Under the pieces are notes generated by a model, which searched no databases, had not been told where the DNA came from, and worked only from the letters and a program-made list of their open reading frames with translations. A stretch of 6,589 nucleotides of DNA from a virus (Duplodnaviria > Heunggongvirae > Uroviricota > Caudoviricetes). The DNA lies in the IMG/VR virus record IMGVR_UViG_2563366849_000001, one strand, 5' to 3'. The translations under genes were made by a program, and so were the position numbers. This document shows positions 1 through 6,589 of the stretch, in pieces; within the stretch, counting starts at the first letter, position 1; every line of letters begins with the position of its first letter.

Positions 1-198
1 GTTTTTTACTACGAGCGCGCCGTGTGTGCGATGGCGACCGCGTCGCTTTATGAGCGTTACCGCGGCGTGGATGCCAGTGCGAAAGGCGACAAGAAGGCCG
101 ACAGCATTGACAGCACCATTGATGAACTGTGGCGGGATATGCGCTGGGCGGTGGCGCGTATCCAGGACAAGCCGCGCTGCATCGTGAGTCAAATCTGA
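1..198 (+). CDS. L: 3' end of head completion/stabilisation protein gpL (5' part lies upstream of the window)
   Basis: Frame 1 is open from the window edge to TGA at 196-198 (…DELWRDMRWAVARIQDKPRCIVSQI*). The stop overlaps the ATG of the next gene (TGATG). Position immediately upstream of X matches P2 order L-X-Y. Identity is by synteny rather than a recognised motif. Confidence 0.6.
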   Translation, partial: VFYYERAVCAMATASLYERYRGVDASAKGDKKADSIDSTIDELWRDMRWAVARIQDKPRCIVSQI

Positions 199-401
199 TG
201 AAGACCTTTGCGCTACAGGGCGACACGCTCGACGCCATTTGTGTCCGGTATTACGGGCGCACTGAGGGCGTGGTCGAGACTGTGCTCGCCGCAAATCCGG
301 GACTGGCTGAACTGGGTGCGGTGCTGCCGCACGGCACCGCCGTCGAACTGCCCGACGTTCAGACCGCGCCCGTGGCTGAAACTGTCAATCTGTGGGAGTA
401 A
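198..401 (+). CDS. X: Tail protein gpX, small LysM-like protein (67 aa)
   Basis: ATG at 198 overlaps the upstream stop; 67 aa (MKTFALQGDTLDAICVRYYGRTEGVVETVLAANPGLAELG…NLWE), the size and sequence type of P2 gpX with a LysM-like 'DTLDAIC…YYG' signature. The ORF-track start at 129 is an in-frame upstream extension that overlaps L and is unlikely to be used. Confidence 0.85.
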   Translation: MKTFALQGDTLDAICVRYYGRTEGVVETVLAANPGLAELGAVLPHGTAVELPDVQTAPVAETVNLWE

Positions 402-404
402 CGC

Positions 405-689
405 ATGACAGCAGAAGAAAAAAGCGTCCTGTCGCTTTTCGTGATTGGGGTGCTGATTGTTGTCGGCAAGGTGCTTGCCGGTGGTGAACCCATCACCCCG
501 CGTCTGTTTATCGGGCGCATGTTGCTCGGTGGTTTTGTCTCGATGGTTGCCGGTGTTGTTCTGGTGCAGTTTCCTGACCTGTCACTGCCTGCGGTGTGCG
601 GCATCGGCTCCATGCTGGGTATCGCCGGTTATCAGGTGATTGAGATTGCCATTCAGCGCCGCTTTAAGGGCAGGGGGAAGCGGAATTAA
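405..689 (+). CDS. Y: Holin gpY (class I, three predicted transmembrane segments, basic C-terminus)
   Basis: GGGAG Shine-Dalgarno at 394-398, ATG at 405. 94 aa with three hydrophobic stretches (SVLSLFVIGVLIVVGKVLAGG / LFIGRMLLGGFVSMVAGVVLV / LPAVCGIGSMLGIAGYQVI) and a charged tail QRRFKGRGKRN. Follows X as in P2. The last few codons may be altered by the adjacent deletion junction. Confidence 0.8.
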   Translation: MTAEEKSVLSLFVIGVLIVVGKVLAGGEPITPRLFIGRMLLGGFVSMVAGVVLVQFPDLSLPAVCGIGSMLGIAGYQVIEIAIQRRFKGRGKRN

Positions 690-951
690 AACGGCCAGCG
701 TGACGGCTTCTGATTCTGTTACTGCCACGGTGCCGGTGGTCATGGTGAAAGCATCAACCCGCGTCACCCTGGACACACCGGAGGTGGTCTGCACCAACAG
801 GCTGATTACCGGCACGCTGGAAGTGCAGAAGGGCGGGACGATGCGCGGCAACATTGAACACACCGGCGGTGAACTCTCATCAAACGGGAAGGTACTGCAT
901 ACCCATAAACACCCCGGCGACAGCGGCGGCACAACCGGGGGACCTCTATGA
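679..951 (+). pseudogene. V: 3' fragment of baseplate spike gene V (about the C-terminal 90 codons; N-terminal domain deleted)
   Basis: Frame open from 640 but no plausible start or RBS of its own; its 5' part overlaps the Y 3' end. Translation …VPVVMVKASTRVTLDTPEVVCTNRLITGTLEVQKGGTMRGNIEHTGGELSSNGKVLHTHKHPGDSGGTTGGPL* resembles the C-terminal beta-helix tip of P2-type gpV spikes, including the His-x-His cluster. The TGA at 949-951 overlaps the W start (ATGA), as in an intact V-W junction. The full-length gene in P2 is roughly 210 codons. Confidence 0.7.
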
Positions 952-1295
952 CAGCGCGTTATCTCGGAATGAATCGCAGTGATGGCCTGACTGTCACTGA
1001 CCTTGAGCATATCAGCCAGAGTATCGGCGATATCCTGCGCACGCCGGTCGGCTCACGGGTGATGCGTCGTGATTACGGCTCGTTGCTGGCGTCAATGATT
1101 GACCAGCCGCAGACCCCGGCGCTTGAGTTGCAGATTAAGGTCGCCTGTTACATGGCGGTGCTGAAATGGGAACCCCGCGTCACCCTGTCATCTGTCACCA
1201 CGGCGCGCAGTTTTGACGGGCGAATGACGGTCACGTTAACCGGCCAGCACAACGACACCGGCCAGCCACTTTCGTTAACCATCCCTGTGAGTTGA
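948..1295 (+). CDS. W: Baseplate assembly protein gpW (gp25/GPW family, 115 aa)
   Basis: ATG at 948 coupled to the V stop; 115 aa (MTARYLGMNRSDGLTVTDLEHISQSIGDILRTPVGSRVMRRDYGS…) typical of the GPW/gp25 baseplate wedge family and the P2 gpW size. The stop at 1293-1295 lies 4 nt before the J start. Confidence 0.9.
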   Translation: MTARYLGMNRSDGLTVTDLEHISQSIGDILRTPVGSRVMRRDYGSLLASMIDQPQTPALELQIKVACYMAVLKWEPRVTLSSVTTARSFDGRMTVTLTGQHNDTGQPLSLTIPVS

Positions 1296-1299
1296 AACT

Positions 1300-1473
1300 A
1301 TGCCGATTATCGACCTGAACCAGCTACCCGCACCGGATGTGGTCGAGGAGCTGGACTTTGAAACCATTCTTGCCGAACGCAAGGCGACACTGATTTCCCT
1401 TTATCTGGGAGCTTTACGCCGCAACCGGTGTGGATGCCGTACCGATTCGTTTTGCAGGCTCTTACCAGCGTGA
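1300..1473 (+). pseudogene. J: Truncated baseplate gene J: about 35 native N-terminal codons, then out-of-frame read-through into FII sequence ending at TGA 1471-1473
   Basis: ATG at 1300 follows W as in P2. Translation MPIIDLNQLPAPDVVEELDFETILAERKATLISLY matches the gpJ N-terminus; from about 1405 the frame continues as LGALRRNRCGCRTDSFCRLLPA*, which is FII DNA read in the wrong frame. The intact gene in P2 is about 300 codons. Confidence 0.75.
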
Positions 1474-1708
1474 CGATACCGGCGAAACGGTGGCCGTCGA
1501 GGTGGTCATGCGTGGACGTCAGAAAGAAATCGACACCGGCGAGGGTAAACAGGGAGAAGACACCGAGTCGAAAATCTCCGTGGTCTGCACTTATTTCCGG
1601 CTGACGATGGACGGTAAGGAGCTGGTCGAAATTGACACCATCAACATGATTGAGAAGGTGAACGGCGTCGACCGGCTGGAGCAACACCGCCGCAATATCG
1701 GCCTGTGA
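1403..1708 (+). pseudogene. FII: 3' fragment of tail tube gene FII (about the C-terminal 100 codons, no native start)
   Basis: In the frame ending at TAA/TGA 1706-1708 the translation is IWELYAATGVDAVPIRFAGSYQRDDTGETVAVEVVMRGRQKEIDTGEGKQGEDTESKISVVCTYFRLTMDGKELVEIDTINMIEKVNGVDRLEQHRRNIGL*, which I recognise as the C-terminal part of P2-type tail tube protein FII (about 172 aa when intact). An in-frame stop at 1391-1393 lies just upstream; the ORF-track 'start' at 1430 is a GTG inside the gene. Located immediately upstream of E as in P2. Confidence 0.75.
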
Positions 1709-1715
1709 TTTTCAT

Positions 1716-1736
1716 CCGGTCAGCCTGGCTGACCGG
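1716..1736 (+). repeat. Perfect inverted repeat (CCGGTCAGCC-T-GGCTGACCGG) in the FII-E intergenic region; potential RNA stem-loop
   Basis: Read directly from the sequence: 10-nt arms that are exact reverse complements, 8 nt after the FII stop and about 28 nt before the E start. It is not followed by a U-run, so it is unlikely to be a classical intrinsic terminator; possibly an RNA stability or processing element. Confidence 0.45.
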
Positions 1737-1764
1737 TTAACCCTGATTCATAAGTGAGAAAACC

Positions 1765-2040
1765 ATGAACAAAGAAAATGTCATTACCCTGGACAATCCG
1801 GTCAAACGTGGTGAGCAGGTTATCGAACAGGTCACGCTGATGAAACCCAGTGCCGGGACGCTGCGCGGTGTCAGTCTGGCAGCGGTCGCGAACTCCGAAG
1901 TCGATGCACTGATTAAGGTGCTGCCGCGCATGACGGCACCGATGCTGACCGAGCAGGAAGTCGCCGCGCTGGAACTGCCTGACCTTGTGGCGCTGGCCGG
2001 TAAGGTGGTCGGTTTTTTGTCGCCGAACTCGGTGCAGTAA
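1765..2040 (+). CDS. E: Tail assembly chaperone gpE (91 aa)
   Basis: ATG at 1765, 91 aa ending TAA 2038-2040; contains the T TTT TTG slippery heptamer near its 3' end. Position between FII and T and the size match P2 gpE. Confidence 0.85.
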   Translation: MNKENVITLDNPVKRGEQVIEQVTLMKPSAGTLRGVSLAAVANSEVDALIKVLPRMTAPMLTEQEVAALELPDLVALAGKVVGFLSPNSVQ

Positions 2041-2192
2041 CGTTCCCGAAAAATCTGTCGGTCGATGACCTGATGGCGGATGTGGCAGTGATATTTCACT
2101 GGCCGCCATCAGAACTGTATCCCATGAGCCTGACCGAACTCATCACATGGCGCGAAAAGGCGCTCCGGCGAAGCGGAAACACGAATGAGTAA
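1765..2192 (+). CDS. E+E': gpE+E' tail assembly chaperone made by programmed -1 ribosomal frameshift (142 aa predicted)
   Basis: Slippery heptamer T-TTT-TTG at 2013-2019 in the E frame. The -1 frame is open from there (FFVAELGAVTFPKNLSVDDLMADVAVIFHWPPSELYPMSLTELITWREKALRRSGNTNE*) to TAA at 2190-2192, which overlaps the T start at 2185. 85 E codons plus 57 E' codons gives 142 aa. Same architecture as the known P2 E/E' and lambda G/GT chaperone pairs. Confidence 0.75.
2013..2019 (+). promoter_or_regulatory. -1 programmed frameshift slippery site (T TTT TTG)
   Basis: X-XXY-YYZ heptamer in the E reading frame (GGT TTT TTG), with a 57-codon open -1 frame downstream that ends exactly at the T start region. 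Confidence 0.7.
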
Positions 2193-4632
2193 CAATGTAA
2201 AATTACAGGTATTGCTCAGGGCTGTTGACCAGGCATCCCGCCCGTTTAAATCCATCCGTACAGCGAGCAAATCGCTGTCGGGGGATATCCGGGAAACACA
2301 AAAATCACTGCGCGAGCTGAACGGTCACGCATCCCGTATTGAGGGATTCCGCAAGACCAGTGCACAGCTCGCCGTGACTGGTCATGCACTTGAAAAGGCA
2401 CGGCAGGAAGCCAAAGCCCTTGCCACACAGTTTAAAAACACCGAACGTCCGACCCGTGCTCAGGCGAAAGTGCTGGAATCAGCAAAGCGAGCGGCGGAAG
2501 ACTTACAGGCGAAATATAACCGCCTGACGGATTCCGTTAAACGCCAGCAGCGGGAACTGGCCGCTGTGGGAATTAATACCCGCAATCTTGCACATGATGA
2601 GCAGGGGCTGAAAAACCGTATCAGTGAAACCACCGCACAGCTTAACCGTCAGCGCGACGCACTGGCGCGTGTCAGTGCACAACAGGCAAAACTTAACGCA
2701 GTCAAACAGCGTTATCAGGCCGGAAAAGAACTGGCAGGAAATATGGCCTCAGTGGGCGCTGCCGGTGTGGGGATTGCTGCTGCGGGAACGATGGCCGGAG
2801 TTAAGCTGCTGATGCCCGGTTATGAGTTTGCGCAGAAAAACTCAGAATTGCAGGCTGTGCTCGGTGTGGCAAAAGACTCCGCCGAAATGGCTGCACTACG
2901 CAAGCAGGCGCGCCAGCTCGGTGACAATACCGCCGCCTCAGCGGATGATGCGGCCGGTGCGCAGATTATCATTGCGAAAGCGGGTGGAGATGTTGATGCC
3001 ATTCAGGCGGCAACGCCGGTCACGCTGAACATGGCGCTGGCGAACCGTCGCACGATGGAAGAAAACGCCGCCCTGCTGATGGGGATGAAATCTGCCTTTC
3101 AGCTTTCAAACGATAAGGTCGCTCATATCGGGGATGTTCTCTCCATGACGATGAACAAAACCGCCGCCGATTTTGACGGTATGAGCGATGCGCTGACCTA
3201 TGCCGCACCTGTGGCAAAAAATGCCGGTGTCAGCATTGAAGAAACCGCCGCAATGGTCGGGGCGCTGCATGATGCAAAAATCACCGGTTCAATGGCGGGG
3301 ACGGGAAGCCGTGCCGTGTTAAGCCGCCTGCAGGCACCGACGGGAAAAGCATGGGATGCACTCAAAGAGCTTGGAGTGAAAACCTCAGACAGCAAGGGAA
3401 ACACCCGGACAATATTTACCATTCTGAAAGAAATGCAGGCCAGTTTTGAGAAAAACCGGCTCGGTACTGCCCAGCAGGCTGAATACATGAAAACTATTTT
3501 CGGGGAGGAGGCCAGCTCAGCCGCCGCCGTGCTGATGACTGCCGCCTCAAGCGGAAAGCTGGACAAACTGACCGCTGCGTTTAAAGCCTCAGACGGGAAG
3601 ACCGCCGAGCTGGTAAATATCATGCAGGACAACCTCGGCGGCGACTTTAAGGAGTTTCAGTCCGCTTATGAGGCGGTGGGGACTGACCTGTTTGACCAGC
3701 AGGAAGGCGCACTGCGTAAGCTCACTCAGACGGCCACAAAGTATGTGTTAAAACTCGACGGCTGGATCCAGAAAAACAAATCACTGGCGTCAACCATCGG
3801 CATCATTGCCGGTGGCGCGCTGGCGCTTATTGGCATCATCGGTGCAATTGGTCTTGTAGCCTGGCCGGTTATCACCGGCATCAATGCCATCATCGCGGCA
3901 GCAGGCGCAATGGGTGCAATCTTCACGACGGTTGGTAGTGCCGTTATGACGGCCATCGGGGCGATTAGCTGGCCGGTTGTGGCCGTGGTGGCTGCAATTG
4001 TCGCCGGGGCGTTGCTTATCCGTAAATACTGGGAGCCTGTCAGCGCATTCTTTGGCGGTGTGGTGGAAGGGCTGAAAGCGGCATTTGCGCCGGTGGGGGA
4101 ACTGTTCACGCCACTTAAACCGGTGTTTGACTGGCTGGGTGAAAAGTTACAGGCCGCGTGGCAATGGTTTAAAAACCTGATTGCCCCGGTCAAAGCCACC
4201 CAGGACACCCTGAACCGTTGCCGTGACACGGGCGTCATGTTCGGGCAGGCACTGGCTGACGCGCTGATGCTGCCGCTTAATGCGTTCAACAAACTGCGCA
4301 GTGGTATTGACTGGGTACTGGAAAAACTCGGTGTCATCAACAAAGAGTCAGACACACTTGACCAGACCGCCGCAAGGACTAATGCCGCCACGTATGGCAC
4401 CGGTGGTTATATTCCGGCGACCAGCTCTTATGCAGGCTATCAGGCTTATCAGCCGGTCACGGCACCGGCTGGCCGCTCTTATGTGGACCAGAGTAAAAAC
4501 GAATATCACATCAGCCTGACCGGTGGTACTGCGCCGGGGACACAGCTCGACCGCCAGTTACAGGATGCGCTCGAAAAATACGAGCGGGATAAACGTGCGC
4601 GCGCCCGTGCCAGCATGATGCATGACGGTTAA
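2185..4632 (+). CDS. T: Tail tape measure protein gpT (815 aa)
   Basis: 815-aa ORF directly after E/E'. The N-terminal third is Ala/Gln/Arg/Lys-rich and predicted coiled-coil; the central part is alpha-helical and Ala-rich; a long Gly/Ala/Ile-rich hydrophobic segment lies at about nt 3778-4030 (IGIIAGGALALIGIIGAIGLVAWPVITGINAIIAAAGAMGAIF…); C-terminal globular part. Size and architecture are typical of a myovirus tape measure and equal P2 gpT length. Confidence 0.9.
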   Translation: MSNNVKLQVLLRAVDQASRPFKSIRTASKSLSGDIRETQKSLRELNGHASRIEGFRKTSAQLAVTGHALEKARQEAKALATQFKNTERPTRAQAKVLESAKRAAEDLQAKYNRLTDSVKRQQRELAAVGINTRNLAHDEQGLKNRISETTAQLNRQRDALARVSAQQAKLNAVKQRYQAGKELAGNMASVGAAGVGIAAAGTMAGVKLLMPGYEFAQKNSELQAVLGVAKDSAEMAALRKQARQLGDNTAASADDAAGAQIIIAKAGGDVDAIQAATPVTLNMALANRRTMEENAALLMGMKSAFQLSNDKVAHIGDVLSMTMNKTAADFDGMSDALTYAAPVAKNAGVSIEETAAMVGALHDAKITGSMAGTGSRAVLSRLQAPTGKAWDALKELGVKTSDSKGNTRTIFTILKEMQASFEKNRLGTAQQAEYMKTIFGEEASSAAAVLMTAASSGKLDKLTAAFKASDGKTAELVNIMQDNLGGDFKEFQSAYEAVGTDLFDQQEGALRKLTQTATKYVLKLDGWIQKNKSLASTIGIIAGGALALIGIIGAIGLVAWPVITGINAIIAAAGAMGAIFTTVGSAVMTAIGAISWPVVAVVAAIVAGALLIRKYWEPVSAFFGGVVEGLKAAFAPVGELFTPLKPVFDWLGEKLQAAWQWFKNLIAPVKATQDTLNRCRDTGVMFGQALADALMLPLNAFNKLRSGIDWVLEKLGVINKESDTLDQTAARTNAATYGTGGYIPATSSYAGYQAYQPVTAPAGRSYVDQSKNEYHISLTGGTAPGTQLDRQLQDALEKYERDKRARARASMMHDG

Positions 4633-4646
4633 GGAGGTGACGAAAA

Positions 4647-5126
4647 ATGATGCTCGCGTTAGGTATGTTTGTTTTTATGCGCCAGACGCTGCCACACCAG
4701 ACCATGCAGCGTGAATCAGATTATCGCTGGCCGTCAAATTCCCGTATCGGTAAACGGGACGCCTACCAGTTTCTCGGTGTGGGTGAGGAAAACATCACGC
4801 TTGCCGGTGTGCTTTATCCAGAACTGACCGGCGGCAAGCTGACGATGACCACGCTCAGGCTGATGGCCGAGGAAGGCCGGGCGTGGCCGTTGCTGGATGG
4901 CACCGGCATGATTTACGGCATGTATGTCATCAGCAGGGTGAGTGAAACAGGGAGTATTTTCTTTGCAGACGGCACACCCCGAAAAATTGATTTTACGCTG
5001 TCGCTCACCCGCGTTGATGAATCACTGGCCGCGCTTTATGGCGATATCGGTAAACAGGCGGAATCGCTCATCGGTAAGGCCGGCAGTATGGCGACCAGAT
5101 TCACGGGTATGACGGGGGCGGGATAA
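4647..5126 (+). CDS. U: Tail protein gpU (tail terminator/tail formation protein, 159 aa)
   Basis: Strong SD AGGAGGT at 4632-4638, ATG at 4647; 159 aa; the stop TAA at 5124-5126 overlaps the D start (TAATG). Position and size match P2 gpU. Confidence 0.85.
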   Translation: MMLALGMFVFMRQTLPHQTMQRESDYRWPSNSRIGKRDAYQFLGVGEENITLAGVLYPELTGGKLTMTTLRLMAEEGRAWPLLDGTGMIYGMYVISRVSETGSIFFADGTPRKIDFTLSLTRVDESLAALYGDIGKQAESLIGKAGSMATRFTGMTGAG

Positions 5127-6289
5127 TGCTGGATGCACTGACATTTGATGCAGGCAGTACGCTGACGCCGGATTACATGCTGATGCTCGACAGCAGGGAT
5201 ATTACCGGCAATATCAGCGACCGTCTGATGAGCATGACCCTGACGGATAACCGGGGCTTTGAGGCTGACCAGCTTGATATTGAACTGAACGATGCCGACG
5301 GGCAGGTCGGGCTGCCGGTTCGTGGCGCTGTCCTGACGGTGTATATCGGCTGGAAAGGTTTTGCCCTGGTATGCAAAGGGAAATTCACCGTTGATGAGGT
5401 TGAACACCGGGGCGCGCCGGATGTGGTTACCATCCGCGCCCGGAGTGCAGATTTTCGCGGGACGCTCAATTCCCGCCGTGAAGGCTCATGGCATGACACC
5501 ACGCTCGGTGCGATTGTTGAGGCGATAGCCTCCCGTAACAGGCTGGAAGCCAGTGTCGCGCCGTCACTGGCCGGAATTAAAATCCCGCACATCGACCAGT
5601 CGCAGGAGTCTGATGCGAAATTCCTGACCCGTCTTGCAGAACGCAACGGCGGTGAGGTGTCGGTAAAAATGGGAAAACTGTTGTTTCTCAAAGCGGGGCA
5701 GGGAGTGACGGCCAGCGGTAAAAAAATCCCGCAGGTCACCATAACCCGCAGCGACGGCGACCGCCATCATTTTGCGATTGCTGACCGTGGAGCCTACACC
5801 GGTGTAACGGCAAAATGGCTACACACCAAAGACCCGAAGCCTCAAAAGCAGAAGGTAAAACTGAAACGCAAAAAGAAAGAGAAACACCTGCGCGCACTGG
5901 AGCACCCGAAAGCGAAACCGGTCAGGCAGAAGAAAGCGCCTAAAGTACCGGAAGCGCGTGAAGGTGAATACATGGCCGGTGAGGCTGACAACGTTTTTGC
6001 CCTGACCACGGTATATGCCACGAAAGCGCAGGCCATGCGCGCCGCTCAGGCGAAGTGGGATAAGCTGCAACGGGGCGTTGCGGAGTTCTCCATCAGTCTG
6101 GCTACCGGTCGTGCTGATATTTACACGGAAACACCGGTTAAAGTGTCAGGCTTTAAGCGCGTCATAGACGAGCAGGACTGGACAATCACTAAGGTGACAC
6201 ATTTTCTGAATAATAGCGGCTTCACGACGTCCTTGGAGCTTGAGGTCAGGCTTTCTGATGTGGAGTACGAAACAGAAGATGATGAGTGA
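5126..6289 (+). CDS. D: Tail protein gpD (phage late control gene D family, 387 aa)
   Basis: ATG at 5126 translationally coupled to U; 387 aa, the P2 gpD size; last gene of the F-E-T-U-D tail operon, directly upstream of ogr. Contains an unusually lysine-rich segment, residues about 233-280 (KDPKPQKQKVKLKRKKKEKHLRALEHPKAKPVRQKKAPKVPEAREGE). Confidence 0.9.
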   Translation: MLDALTFDAGSTLTPDYMLMLDSRDITGNISDRLMSMTLTDNRGFEADQLDIELNDADGQVGLPVRGAVLTVYIGWKGFALVCKGKFTVDEVEHRGAPDVVTIRARSADFRGTLNSRREGSWHDTTLGAIVEAIASRNRLEASVAPSLAGIKIPHIDQSQESDAKFLTRLAERNGGEVSVKMGKLLFLKAGQGVTASGKKIPQVTITRSDGDRHHFAIADRGAYTGVTAKWLHTKDPKPQKQKVKLKRKKKEKHLRALEHPKAKPVRQKKAPKVPEAREGEYMAGEADNVFALTTVYATKAQAMRAAQAKWDKLQRGVAEFSISLATGRADIYTETPVKVSGFKRVIDEQDWTITKVTHFLNNSGFTTSLELEVRLSDVEYETEDDE

Positions 6290-6307
6290 TGCTTTTATTT
6301 TATCTGT

Positions 6308-6336
6308 TTGTTTTATAAGGATAAATTAACTAAAAT
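6308..6336 (+). promoter_or_regulatory. Candidate sigma70 promoter for ogr (TTGTTT - 17 nt - TAAAAT)
   Basis: -35-like TTGTTT at 6308-6313 and -10-like TAAAAT at 6331-6336 with a 17-nt spacer, in the AT-rich gap between the D stop (6289) and the ogr start (6371). Sequence-pattern prediction only. Confidence 0.4.
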
Positions 6337-6370
6337 GGCACTATCAACAAAACCGGAAGAGGTGCTCGCG

Positions 6371-6589
6371 ATGTTTCATTGTCCTTTATGCCAGCATGCC
6401 GCACATGCGCGTACAAGTCGCTATATCACTGACACGACAAAAGAGCGTTATCACCAGTGCCAGAACGTGAATTGCAGCGCCACGTTCATCACTTATGAGT
6501 CGGTACAGCGATACATCGTGAAGCCGGGAGAAGTCCACGCCGTAAGGCCGCACCCGTTGCCGTCAGGGCAGCAAATTATGTGGATGTAA
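6371..6589 (+). CDS. ogr: Ogr, Cys4 zinc-finger activator of P2 late promoters (72 aa, complete)
   Basis: ATG at 6371 with GAAGAGG RBS about 8 nt upstream; 72 aa MFHCPLCQHAAHARTSRYITDTTKERYHQCQNVNCSATFITYESVQRYIVKPGEVHAVRPHPLPSGQQIMWM*, matching as far as I can recall the P2 Ogr / E. coli OgrK sequence with the C-x2-C-x22-C-x4-C zinc-binding motif (Cys4, 7, 30, 35). The stop TAA is the last three bases of the window. The ORF-track start at 6308 adds a 21-aa extension that I consider spurious. Confidence 0.9.
   Translation: MFHCPLCQHAAHARTSRYITDTTKERYHQCQNVNCSATFITYESVQRYIVKPGEVHAVRPHPLPSGQQIMWM

Follow-up and report, generated by a model that had tools for sequence, protein, structure and literature searches.

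Two deletions fuse the late operon remnants of a probable P2-like prophage portion in Escherichia coli

P2 has four Ogr-dependent late promoters (PMC3931495). A 6,589-bp stretch of DNA carrying P2-type late genes (hereafter the window; bases 1-6589 of scaffold KE137287.1, in which position 1 is the scaffold end) raises the question of whether late operons have here been merged by deletion and, if so, from where the genes of the merged string could be transcribed. A first-pass annotation had claimed that two deletions joined three P2 late operons into one co-directional array and removed the V and F promoters, so that T, U and D would depend on read-through or on a new promoter. The comparison of the window with P2 and with intact and defective relatives provides a basis for examining these claims.

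Two deletions in a P2-type late region

By using BLAST against P2 (AF063097), the window was found to align as three collinear blocks without gaps or indels within blocks, at approximately 97% nucleotide identity, and the retained genes share order and identity with those of the phage. The block overlaps of 5 and 11 bp reported by BLAST are imperfect matches, and base-by-base inspection revealed that the exact microhomologies are shorter. Breakpoints were set by three-way alignments of the window, P2 and the prophage of strain DETEC-S792.

Block 1: window 1-679 = P2 6312-6990, 97.9% identity (BLAST)
Block 2: window 675-1411 = P2 10667-11403, 97.2% identity (BLAST); P2 10672-11395 after trimming at the breakpoints
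Block 3: window 1401-6589 = P2 19066-24254, 97.3% identity (BLAST); P2 19069-24254 after trimming at the breakpoint
Junction 1: 678-680, break at 679/680; P2 6990 joined to P2 10672, exact AA microhomology at 678-679
Junction 2: 1401-1404, break at 1403/1404; P2 11395 joined to P2 19069, exact TTA microhomology at 1401-1403

The first deletion (P2 6991-10671; its length is 3,681 bp by P2 coordinates and 3,577 bp by those of the closer relative, the DETEC-S792 prophage) takes the end of Y, K, lysABC, R, S, the O-operon terminator, orf30, the activator site and start of pV, and V codons 1-121 (the 5' half of the gene). The second (P2 11396-19068; 7,673 bp by P2 coordinates and 6,592 bp by those of the same relative) takes most of J (its 3' part), I, H, G, the V-operon terminator, fun(Z), the activator site and start of pF, FI, and FII codons 1-71 (the 5' part). 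In the account proposed here, two illegitimate-recombination deletions at 2-3 bp microhomologies would have cut approximately 3.6 kb and 6.6 kb from a full-length prophage, removing the genes for lysis, those for tail completion (R and S), most of those for the baseplate, those for the tail fibre, the sheath gene and half of the tube gene. What was left would be L-X-Y'-V'-W-J'/FII'-E-E'-T-U-D and, after it, ogr under its own promoter.

Several observations bear on the nature of this locus. An Ogr/Delta zinc-finger activator and collinear late genes, recognized by Pfam and by identity to P2, place it among P2-like (Peduoviridae) late regions. Directly beyond the window, 3' of ogr, a terminator is followed by pflB, and the match to P2 ends at P2 24342, short of the attP core; the prophage is thus inserted beside pflB, and P2's own sites are not used. 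The phage-derived block is flanked by the host genes pflB, focA and ycaO and has lost essential functions that are present in the intact prophages of strains DETEC-S792 and LR-45 at the same pflA/pflB site, as in a cryptic prophage. These two prophages are full length, carry K-S, V-G, FI and FII, and show 99.7% identity to the window in FII'-ogr and 98-99% in blocks 1 and 2, which makes them the best parent model on hand. The window is thus likely to be the right-hand (attR-proximal) portion of a defective P2-like prophage of the E. coli KTE156 lineage, adjoining pflB.

Retained genes and lost regulatory signals

The coding features of the window, together with the ogr promoter, are as follows.

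1-198, + strand: L', 3' part of the capsid completion gene (= P2 6312-6509; Pfam Phage_GPL), cut by the scaffold end
198-401, + strand: X (tail protein X), intact, 67/67 amino acids as in P2 gpX; its start overlaps the L stop (TGATG)
405-689, + strand: Y (holin; Pfam Phage_holin_3_2); junction 1 turns the C-terminal Q* into RN*, changing the length from 93 to 94 amino acids
676-951, + strand: V' (gpV amino acids 121-211), without native start and out of frame with Y; in-frame stop upstream at approximately 637-639
948-1295, + strand: W (baseplate, gp25-like), intact, 115/115 amino acids as in P2 gpW
1300-1473, + strand: J' chimeric ORF, 35 native gpJ codons and then out of frame through FII' to a stop at 1473
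1403-1708, + strand: FII' (tail tube amino acids 72-172), identical to P2 gpFII, without native start; first in-frame start GTG at 1430
1765-2040, + strand: E, intact, 91/91 identical to P2
1765-2192, + strand: E+E', -1 frameshift product, TTTTTTG slippery site ending at 2020, E' stop at 2190-2192; intact and identical to P2
2185-4632, + strand: T (tape measure), intact, 815 amino acids, 804/815 identical to P2, without internal stops
4647-5126, + strand: U, intact, 158/159 identical to P2
5126-6289, + strand: D, intact, 385/387 identical to P2
6308-6337, + strand: ogr promoter, -35 TTG at 6308-6310 and -10 at 6331-6337, equal to P2-annotated 23973-23975 and 23996-24002, both unchanged
6371-6589, + strand: ogr (late activator), intact, 72/72 as in P2 Ogr; Pfam Ogr_Delta

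The proteins X, W, E, E+E' and Ogr do not differ from those of P2, with which the window also shares the ogr promoter, the E/E' slippery site and a hairpin between FII and E. Translation against P2 gpY showed that Y is not truncated and that its last residue alone is altered. The exact gpD protein is common, being listed in 3,975 blocks of a public collection; the exact 57-amino-acid J' chimeric product is present in just two NCBI records. All members of the gene string named in the first-pass annotation are present, with the qualification that V' and FII' are fragments without starts of their own. The truncation of L', which had been counted among the products of deletion, marks the edge of the assembly, and J' and FII', described as a fusion, are out of frame with each other. 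All four stop/start overlaps that had been listed were recovered (TGATG at 196-200, ATGA at 948-951, the T start at 2185 against the E+E' stop at 2190-2192, and TAATG at 5124-5128). The segment 2040-2185, regarded as a gap in which a promoter might lie, is occupied by the E' frameshift extension.

Compared with the closest intact prophage, the window has 18 synonymous and 6 non-synonymous differences; with the surviving genes intact, no decay since the deletions is visible. The gene set for a complete tail and for lysis is broken: K, R, S, I, H, G and FI are gone, and V, J and FII are truncated. The remnant is unable to build a tail or lyse the cell, and the locus is a case of routine prophage decay by two ordinary deletions.

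The regulatory losses can be read from the annotation of the P2 record. The pV activator site (P2 10239-10266) and start (10308) lie within deletion 1, and the pF activator site (P2 17555-17583) and start (17626-17628) lie within deletion 2, so the possibility that these promoters were situated outside the deleted regions does not hold. In the DETEC-S792 and LR-45 prophages a pF-type dyad is found 90 nt upstream of FI, with a similar, less regular sequence upstream of V, and the DETEC-S792 dyad likewise falls in the lost interval. Among the four late promoters with an upstream dyad near -55 (pP, pO, pV and pF), pP and pO lie beyond the window, in sequence that is not assembled. An addition to the earlier account is the loss of the terminators of the O operon (P2 9397-9433) and the V operon (P2 15639-15666), which would have blocked read-through. 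With pV, pF and both terminators deleted and every retained gene on the + strand, what remains of the O, V and F operons has been joined by the deletions into a single string of genes in one orientation, as had been proposed; the ogr promoter is the sole annotated promoter that remains in the window.

A new promoter within the string was also looked for. Four sigma-70-like matches were detected in the window against 3.7 expected by chance, none of them at the junctions, in 1700-1765 or in 2040-2185, the last two being the places where a promoter would have contradicted the first-pass annotation. For activator sites, a strict TGT-N12-ACA pattern gave no match in the window; it was dropped as a probe because it also misses every annotated P2 activator site, and a matrix built from the four P2 sites was used instead. 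The best matrix score in the window was 7.1, compared with a best of 6.6 +/- 2.7 in shuffled sequence, and the same sequence is also present in P2. The power of this four-site matrix is low (leave-one-out scores from -10.6 to 16.3), such that a weak or atypical promoter could escape it. No dyad-like late-promoter motif above chance was found in the window, and an Rfam search of the window matched no family. By these scans, the part of the window upstream of ogr appears to be free of promoter-like signal above chance, in agreement with the view that no internal promoter is obvious.

Read-through and the hairpin between FII and E

Since the string has no promoter of its own, transcription could reach E, T, U and D only as read-through that starts further upstream; the most plausible source is the Ogr-dependent pO, if that promoter survives. 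The dependence of T-U-D expression on read-through is a reasonable expectation from the sequence, and it is strengthened because both inter-operon terminators are lost. Read-through from pO itself is plausible; the pO region lies beyond the scaffold end here and within an N gap in a sister assembly. Dependence on pO implies that the remnant would be silent unless Ogr or the activator of a satellite or helper (such as P4 delta) were made.

The spacer between FII' and E contains one further element that could affect such transcripts.

1716-1736, + strand: native hairpin in the FII-E spacer, arms 1716-1725 and 1727-1736, with a 9-bp GC-rich stem, a CUG loop and no U-tract

The perfect 10-bp inverted repeat that had been pointed out in the gap 1709-1764 is real; it corresponds to an inherited, terminator-like hairpin that folds as a 9-bp stem (centroid -16.5 kcal/mol) and predates the deletions. 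The stem is followed by UUAACCCUGAUUC without a U-tract, and a terminator scan was silent at this site, so that 1716-1736 does not have the form of an intrinsic terminator. P2 carries the hairpin too, there with a G.U pair. The stem hardly varies among 80 close relatives, and for this reason covariation in that set gave no compensatory evidence; support for the hairpin comes instead from its positional conservation in distant lineages. Taken together, the hairpin is native, conserved in the P2 family and terminator-like, and was not created by the deletions.

Across the P2 family more broadly, a hairpin 3' of the tube gene is conserved in position: 7 of 8 other lineages of the family have one at the same place, built from unrelated sequence, and in one of the lineages, a Mannheimia phage, a full terminator, annotated as such, occupies this position.

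Read-through along the string would probably be damped at the hairpin at 1716-1736, and probably also by Rho-dependent polarity over 690-947 and 1474-1764, two stretches without native translation. The C-over-G bias of the untranslated stretches, a proxy for Rho utilisation, is modest and marginal. The deletions, the missing promoters and terminators and the condition of each gene are seen directly in the sequence comparison; the transcriptional consequences, including the damping, we infer from the arrangement of the genes and signals.

Alternative readings and implications

The rarity of the junctions bears on whether they are real. Both junction-specific ORFs occur in only two draft assemblies, which differ at 8 positions and are not necessarily from different strains. 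A junction-spanning megablast of 5,426 complete E. coli genomes gave no match crossing either junction, exact searches of representative genomes and viral contigs (both junctions) and of metagenome contigs (junction 2) returned nothing, and neither junction was seen in any independently assembled source. The sister assembly is odd in this region: it contains a self-overlapping 3.2-kb contig with a 25-nt end/start overlap and two extra backward junctions, and its scaffold has N gaps of 6,695 and 4,290 nt and a total spacing of 14,184, near the 14,208 of intact P2. Moreover, the window starts at a scaffold end, and of the 8 positions that distinguish the assemblies, 7 have a KTE156 allele that is also found in other P2-like prophages, as mixing of repeats could give; this comparison fits either real strain differences or repeat mixing and is not decisive. 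All of this might be produced if the junctions were short-read artefacts of more than one near-identical P2-like prophage, or of a mixed or rearranging population, in which case the merged string would be a construct of assembly. We regard this as unlikely. An identity of 2-3 bp is too short for De Bruijn or overlap assemblers to join sequences, which means that the junctions must be covered by reads; the two assemblies agree exactly in both junctions; and the contig runs free of N from L' through both junctions and ogr into the unique chromosomal genes pflB-focA-ycaO. The forward jumps are a signature of deletion, unlike circularisation chimeras. Comparable deletions are also real in long-read genomes. 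Remnants in the complete genomes of NCTC9041 (at pflA/pflB) and ETEC1701 (at yegQ) have also lost the pF region and kept a co-directional attR-proximal FII-E-T-U-D-ogr end. The former has the breakpoint I'|FI' and keeps V, W, J and an intact FII; the latter has the breakpoints V'|H'|FI' and keeps an intact FII. The junctions of the window are absent from both, and the different breakpoints indicate independent events. The ogrK-yegZ remnant of E. coli K-12 is presumably another relevant defective P2-like remnant.

Two further readings accept the junctions and differ on how they arose or why the genes persist. The cluster of microhomology junctions, which besides the two deletions includes, in KTE156, a 565-bp tandem duplication and a junction from the 5' part of T to the M/L spacer that closes a 3.2-kb unit, might stem from one replication-based template-switching event that amplified a mini-cassette (L-X-Y'-V'-W-J'/FII'-E) in tandem within the prophage; E-T-U-D-ogr would then be a complementing reservoir, transcribed by read-through from pO on the arrival of an activator of P2 or P4 type. 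This is given a very low probability. Lower still is the chance that the remnant is a retained module under selection, in which a new or cryptic promoter drives E-T-U-D-ogr (perhaps with X and W) to the benefit of the host; within this reading, the module might for instance be a reservoir by which incoming P2-like phages or P4-type satellites are complemented, or with which they recombine. Neither frameshifts nor nonsense codons are present in the complete genes that survive, their substitutions are mostly synonymous, ogr retains its own promoter, and the attR-proximal end has been kept repeatedly in independent remnants. A synonymous bias is nevertheless expected from divergence of functional phages before a recent deletion, with no need for later selection, and retention of the att-proximal end is expected under random internal deletions. 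No promoter-like signal was found upstream of E or T by the sigma-70-like and matrix scans, no role is known for E, T, U and D where sheath, tube and baseplate are missing, and the junctions are private to one lineage.

Under the preferred reading, in which two ordinary deletions shortened a full-length prophage, annotators should regard T, U, D, E, W and X of this locus, intact as they look, as parts of a dead tail module. The window shows cleanly, and at base resolution, how a P2-type prophage is reduced by microhomology deletions to a promoter-less remnant, with little import beyond annotation. The hairpin at the tube gene may help in understanding tail-gene stoichiometry more generally. 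If the read-through is real, the locus would also be a small illustration of operon fusion through the loss of promoter-terminator pairs.

Two deletions in the late-gene region

According to the accepted scheme for P2, four Ogr-dependent late promoters, pP, pO, pV and pF, drive the operons PQ, O-to-S, VWJIHG and FI-FII-E-E'-T-U-D, respectively (PMC3931495). The first-pass annotation had described the window as a merged co-directional string of remnants of the late operons without pV and pF, an observation that is confirmed here, with its interpretation supported and several details corrected. Megablast against phage entries and the complete genomes of E. coli returned P2-family matches, and no single record spanned the whole window. 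By using the annotated P2 genome AF063097 as the reference for block mapping, BLAST resolved the window into three collinear blocks without gaps.

Collinear blocks shared by the window and P2
Block 1: window 1-679, P2 6312-6990, 97.9% identity
Block 2: window 675-1411, P2 10667-11403, 97.2% identity
Block 3: window 1401-6589, P2 19066-24254, 97.3% identity

When the window was compared base by base to P2 and to an intact prophage that is much more closely related, the breakpoints fell at 679/680 (junction 1) and 1403/1404 (junction 2), with exact microhomologies of AA and TTA; the longer BLAST overlaps are imperfect. Based on the P2 record, deletion 1 (P2 6991-10671; 3,681 bp, or 3,577 bp measured on the closer relative) comprises the last two codons of Y, K, lysA/B/C, R, S, orf30 and V codons 1-121, together with the O-operon terminator tO (9397-9433), the pV activator site (10239-10266) and the pV start (10308). 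Deletion 2 (P2 11396-19068; 7,673 bp, or 6,592 bp on the closer relative) comprises J codons 36-302, I, H, G, fun(Z), FI and FII codons 1-71, as well as the V-operon terminator tV (15639-15666), the pF activator site (17555-17583) and the pF start (17626-17628). The annotated sites and starts of both promoters thus lie inside the deleted intervals, as had been proposed. Both inter-operon terminators are gone too, a point absent from the earlier annotation, and their loss is what physically permits one read-through transcript. Two microhomology deletions have therefore removed pV, pF, tO and tV and left a co-directional gene string.

The junctions were found in neither 5,426 complete E. coli genomes nor the representative-genome and viral contig collections, and junction 2 was also absent from metagenome contigs. 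The junction-specific proteins could be detected in only two NCBI draft records, ELF21251.1 (from the sister E. coli assembly KTE156) and EOW62590.1, and in no independently assembled source. Moreover, the KTE156 scaffold KB733421.1 is anomalous at this locus. Its junction-bearing contig (L004 9444-12641; 3,198 nt) has a 25-nt exact overlap between end and start, contains two extra backward junctions (one from window 1935 to 1371, which duplicates 565 bp in tandem, the other from P2 19871 to 5903, joining the 5' end of T to the M/L spacer), and is bordered by N gaps of 6,695 and 4,290 nt; the M'-to-E' spacing of the scaffold is 14,184, compared with 14,208 in intact P2. These oddities could reflect tandem amplification, a mixed population or misassembly. 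Between the two assemblies there are 8 differing positions, and for 7 of these the KTE156 allele is shared by other P2-like prophages, a pattern that fits real strain differences and repeat mixing alike. The absence from the collections searched and the near-intact spacing, self-overlap, backward junctions and gaps of KTE156 count toward an assembly artefact or heterogeneity. However, identities of 2-3 bp are too short for assemblers to join sequences, the window contig is continuous and free of N between L' and chromosomal genes that are unique, and forward jumps are what deletions characteristically leave, which makes an artefactual or heterogeneous origin improbable and leaves genuine deletions as the preferred reading.

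Promoter search and the FII-E hairpin

The earlier statement that the string contains no obvious internal promoter holds. A sigma-70 consensus scan of the window yielded 4 matches, all of them weak (9 of 12 positions), compared with 3.7 expected by chance, and none at either junction, in 1700-1765 or in 2040-2185. Two + strand matches are also present in the P2 sequence, which differs by three bases in one and by one base in the other. A weak sigma-70-like element at 5100-5127 (TTCACG-16-GATAAT) lies across the stop of U and the start of D; P2 has TTCACA there, which is nearer to consensus, indicating native sequence that did not arise in the remnant.

For the activator site, the textbook pattern TGT-N12-ACA has no match in the window and also fails on real P2 sites, and the form TG[T/G]-N12-[A/C][A/C]A is present in all four annotated P2 late promoters, beginning at -64 to -66. 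Leave-one-out scores between -10.6 and 16.3 show the matrix built from these four promoters to be weak. Its top + strand score, 7.1 at 2081-2098 (TGTGGCAGTGATATTTCA), compares with best shuffle scores averaging 6.6 +/- 2.7. This sequence belongs to the E' extension and precedes the T start by about 90 nt; it was rejected as a promoter since the score is at chance level and the identical P2 sequence carries no promoter annotation. The matrix result is an absence of evidence and no proof of promoter absence. Apart from the two junctions, the whole window is native P2-family sequence without a known promoter except that of ogr, and this collinearity is the stronger argument against an internal promoter.

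The inverted repeat reported in the 1709-1764 gap is real (arms 1716-1725 and 1727-1736) and was inherited from the P2 family, not made by the deletions. It folds into a GC-rich stem of 9 bp capped by a CUG loop (centroid -16.5 kcal/mol), and P2 carries the same hairpin with one A-to-G change that leaves the + strand RNA paired there as G.U. The element is not a promoter. Among 80 close relatives, the stem is nearly invariant, and the loop and downstream spacer are variable. A GC-rich hairpin also lies just 3' of the tube gene stop in 7 of 8 other P2-family lineages examined (P2_4A7b, SW9, YenM_56.17, phiE202, Klebsiella phi8.4, phiCTX and Mannheimia 1127AP1), the exception being YenM_42.18. 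The stem of P2_4A7b is identical to that of the window, and SW9 has a related, extended stem; the stems of the five most distant of these lineages are unrelated in sequence. In 1127AP1, the hairpin at the equivalent position is annotated as a rho-independent terminator. No U-tract follows the hairpin in P2 or the window, and a terminator scan reported nothing there. The hairpin is likely a conserved attenuator or 3'-stabilising element that keeps expression of sheath and tube higher than that of the genes after it.

Surviving genes and related prophages

The X, W, E, E+E' and Ogr proteins are 100% identical to those of P2, the E+E' slippery site TTTTTTG is the same, and T (804/815), U (158/159) and D (385/387) are full length. 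Y (405-689) is essentially intact, with its C-terminal Q* changed to RN*; this holin ORF is kept, whereas the deletion took the spanins and K, its endolysin partner. The ogr gene is intact with its own promoter, whose -35 and -10 are unchanged from P2. All four proposed stop/start overlaps are present. On the other hand, J'::FII' is no in-frame fusion: J' consists of 35 native codons followed by out-of-frame reading to a stop at 1473, and FII' (aa 72-172) is in a different frame. V' (gpV aa 121-211) differs in frame from Y and lacks its native start. Nor is L' a deletion product, since the window corresponds to bases 1-6589 of scaffold KE137287.1 and its position 1 is thus an assembly edge. 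This edge lies inside gene L, and the prophage sequence upstream of it, pO and pP included, is unassembled in this genome, which may point to a repeat, or to a branch of the assembly graph, at this position.

Past ogr come its terminator, pflB, focA and ycaO. In the flank past ogr (L003 6590-6680), the P2 match stops at P2 24342, short of the P2 attP core (24356-24383), which fits a prophage lineage with an attachment site (pflA/pflB) other than that of P2. At the same site, E. coli DETEC-S792 and LR-45 carry full-length P2-like prophages with 99.7% identity to the window in the right block and 98-99% in the remaining two blocks. In these prophages, a pF-type dyad precedes FI by 90 nt. The differences between the window and DETEC-S792 comprise 18 synonymous and 6 non-synonymous changes and no frameshift or nonsense codons, so that a recent deletion from a functional phage accounts for the intact state of the surviving genes.

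Independently decayed remnants in complete genomes also lack the pF region: NCTC9041 at the pflA/pflB site (I' joined to FI') and ETEC1701 at the yegQ site (V', H' and FI' joined). The exact gpD protein occurs in 3,975 blocks of a public collection, with two further remnant variants among them. The attR-proximal FII-E-T-U-D(-ogr) end is kept repeatedly in independent remnants with differing internal deletions (NCTC9041, ETEC1701 and the loci L104 and L099). In L104, replication gene A is joined to tail-fibre assembly genes; in L099, T is in two pieces of 664 and 131 aa.

Transcription of E-T-U-D would come by read-through only, most plausibly from pO if retained, the position of which falls past the scaffold end in the window assembly and, in KTE156, within an N gap. 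Such read-through would require Ogr or a P4-type activator. The hairpin (1716-1736) would probably damp it, as would Rho-dependent polarity in two stretches that lack native translation, 690-947 (258 nt) and 1474-1764 (291 nt), in which C/G bias is marginal. The object belongs to a familiar class, that of decaying P2-like prophages, of which it is an ordinary though previously undescribed example. The remnant can neither assemble a tail nor bring about cell lysis, and Y, if ever expressed through read-through, would be a holin without an endolysin.
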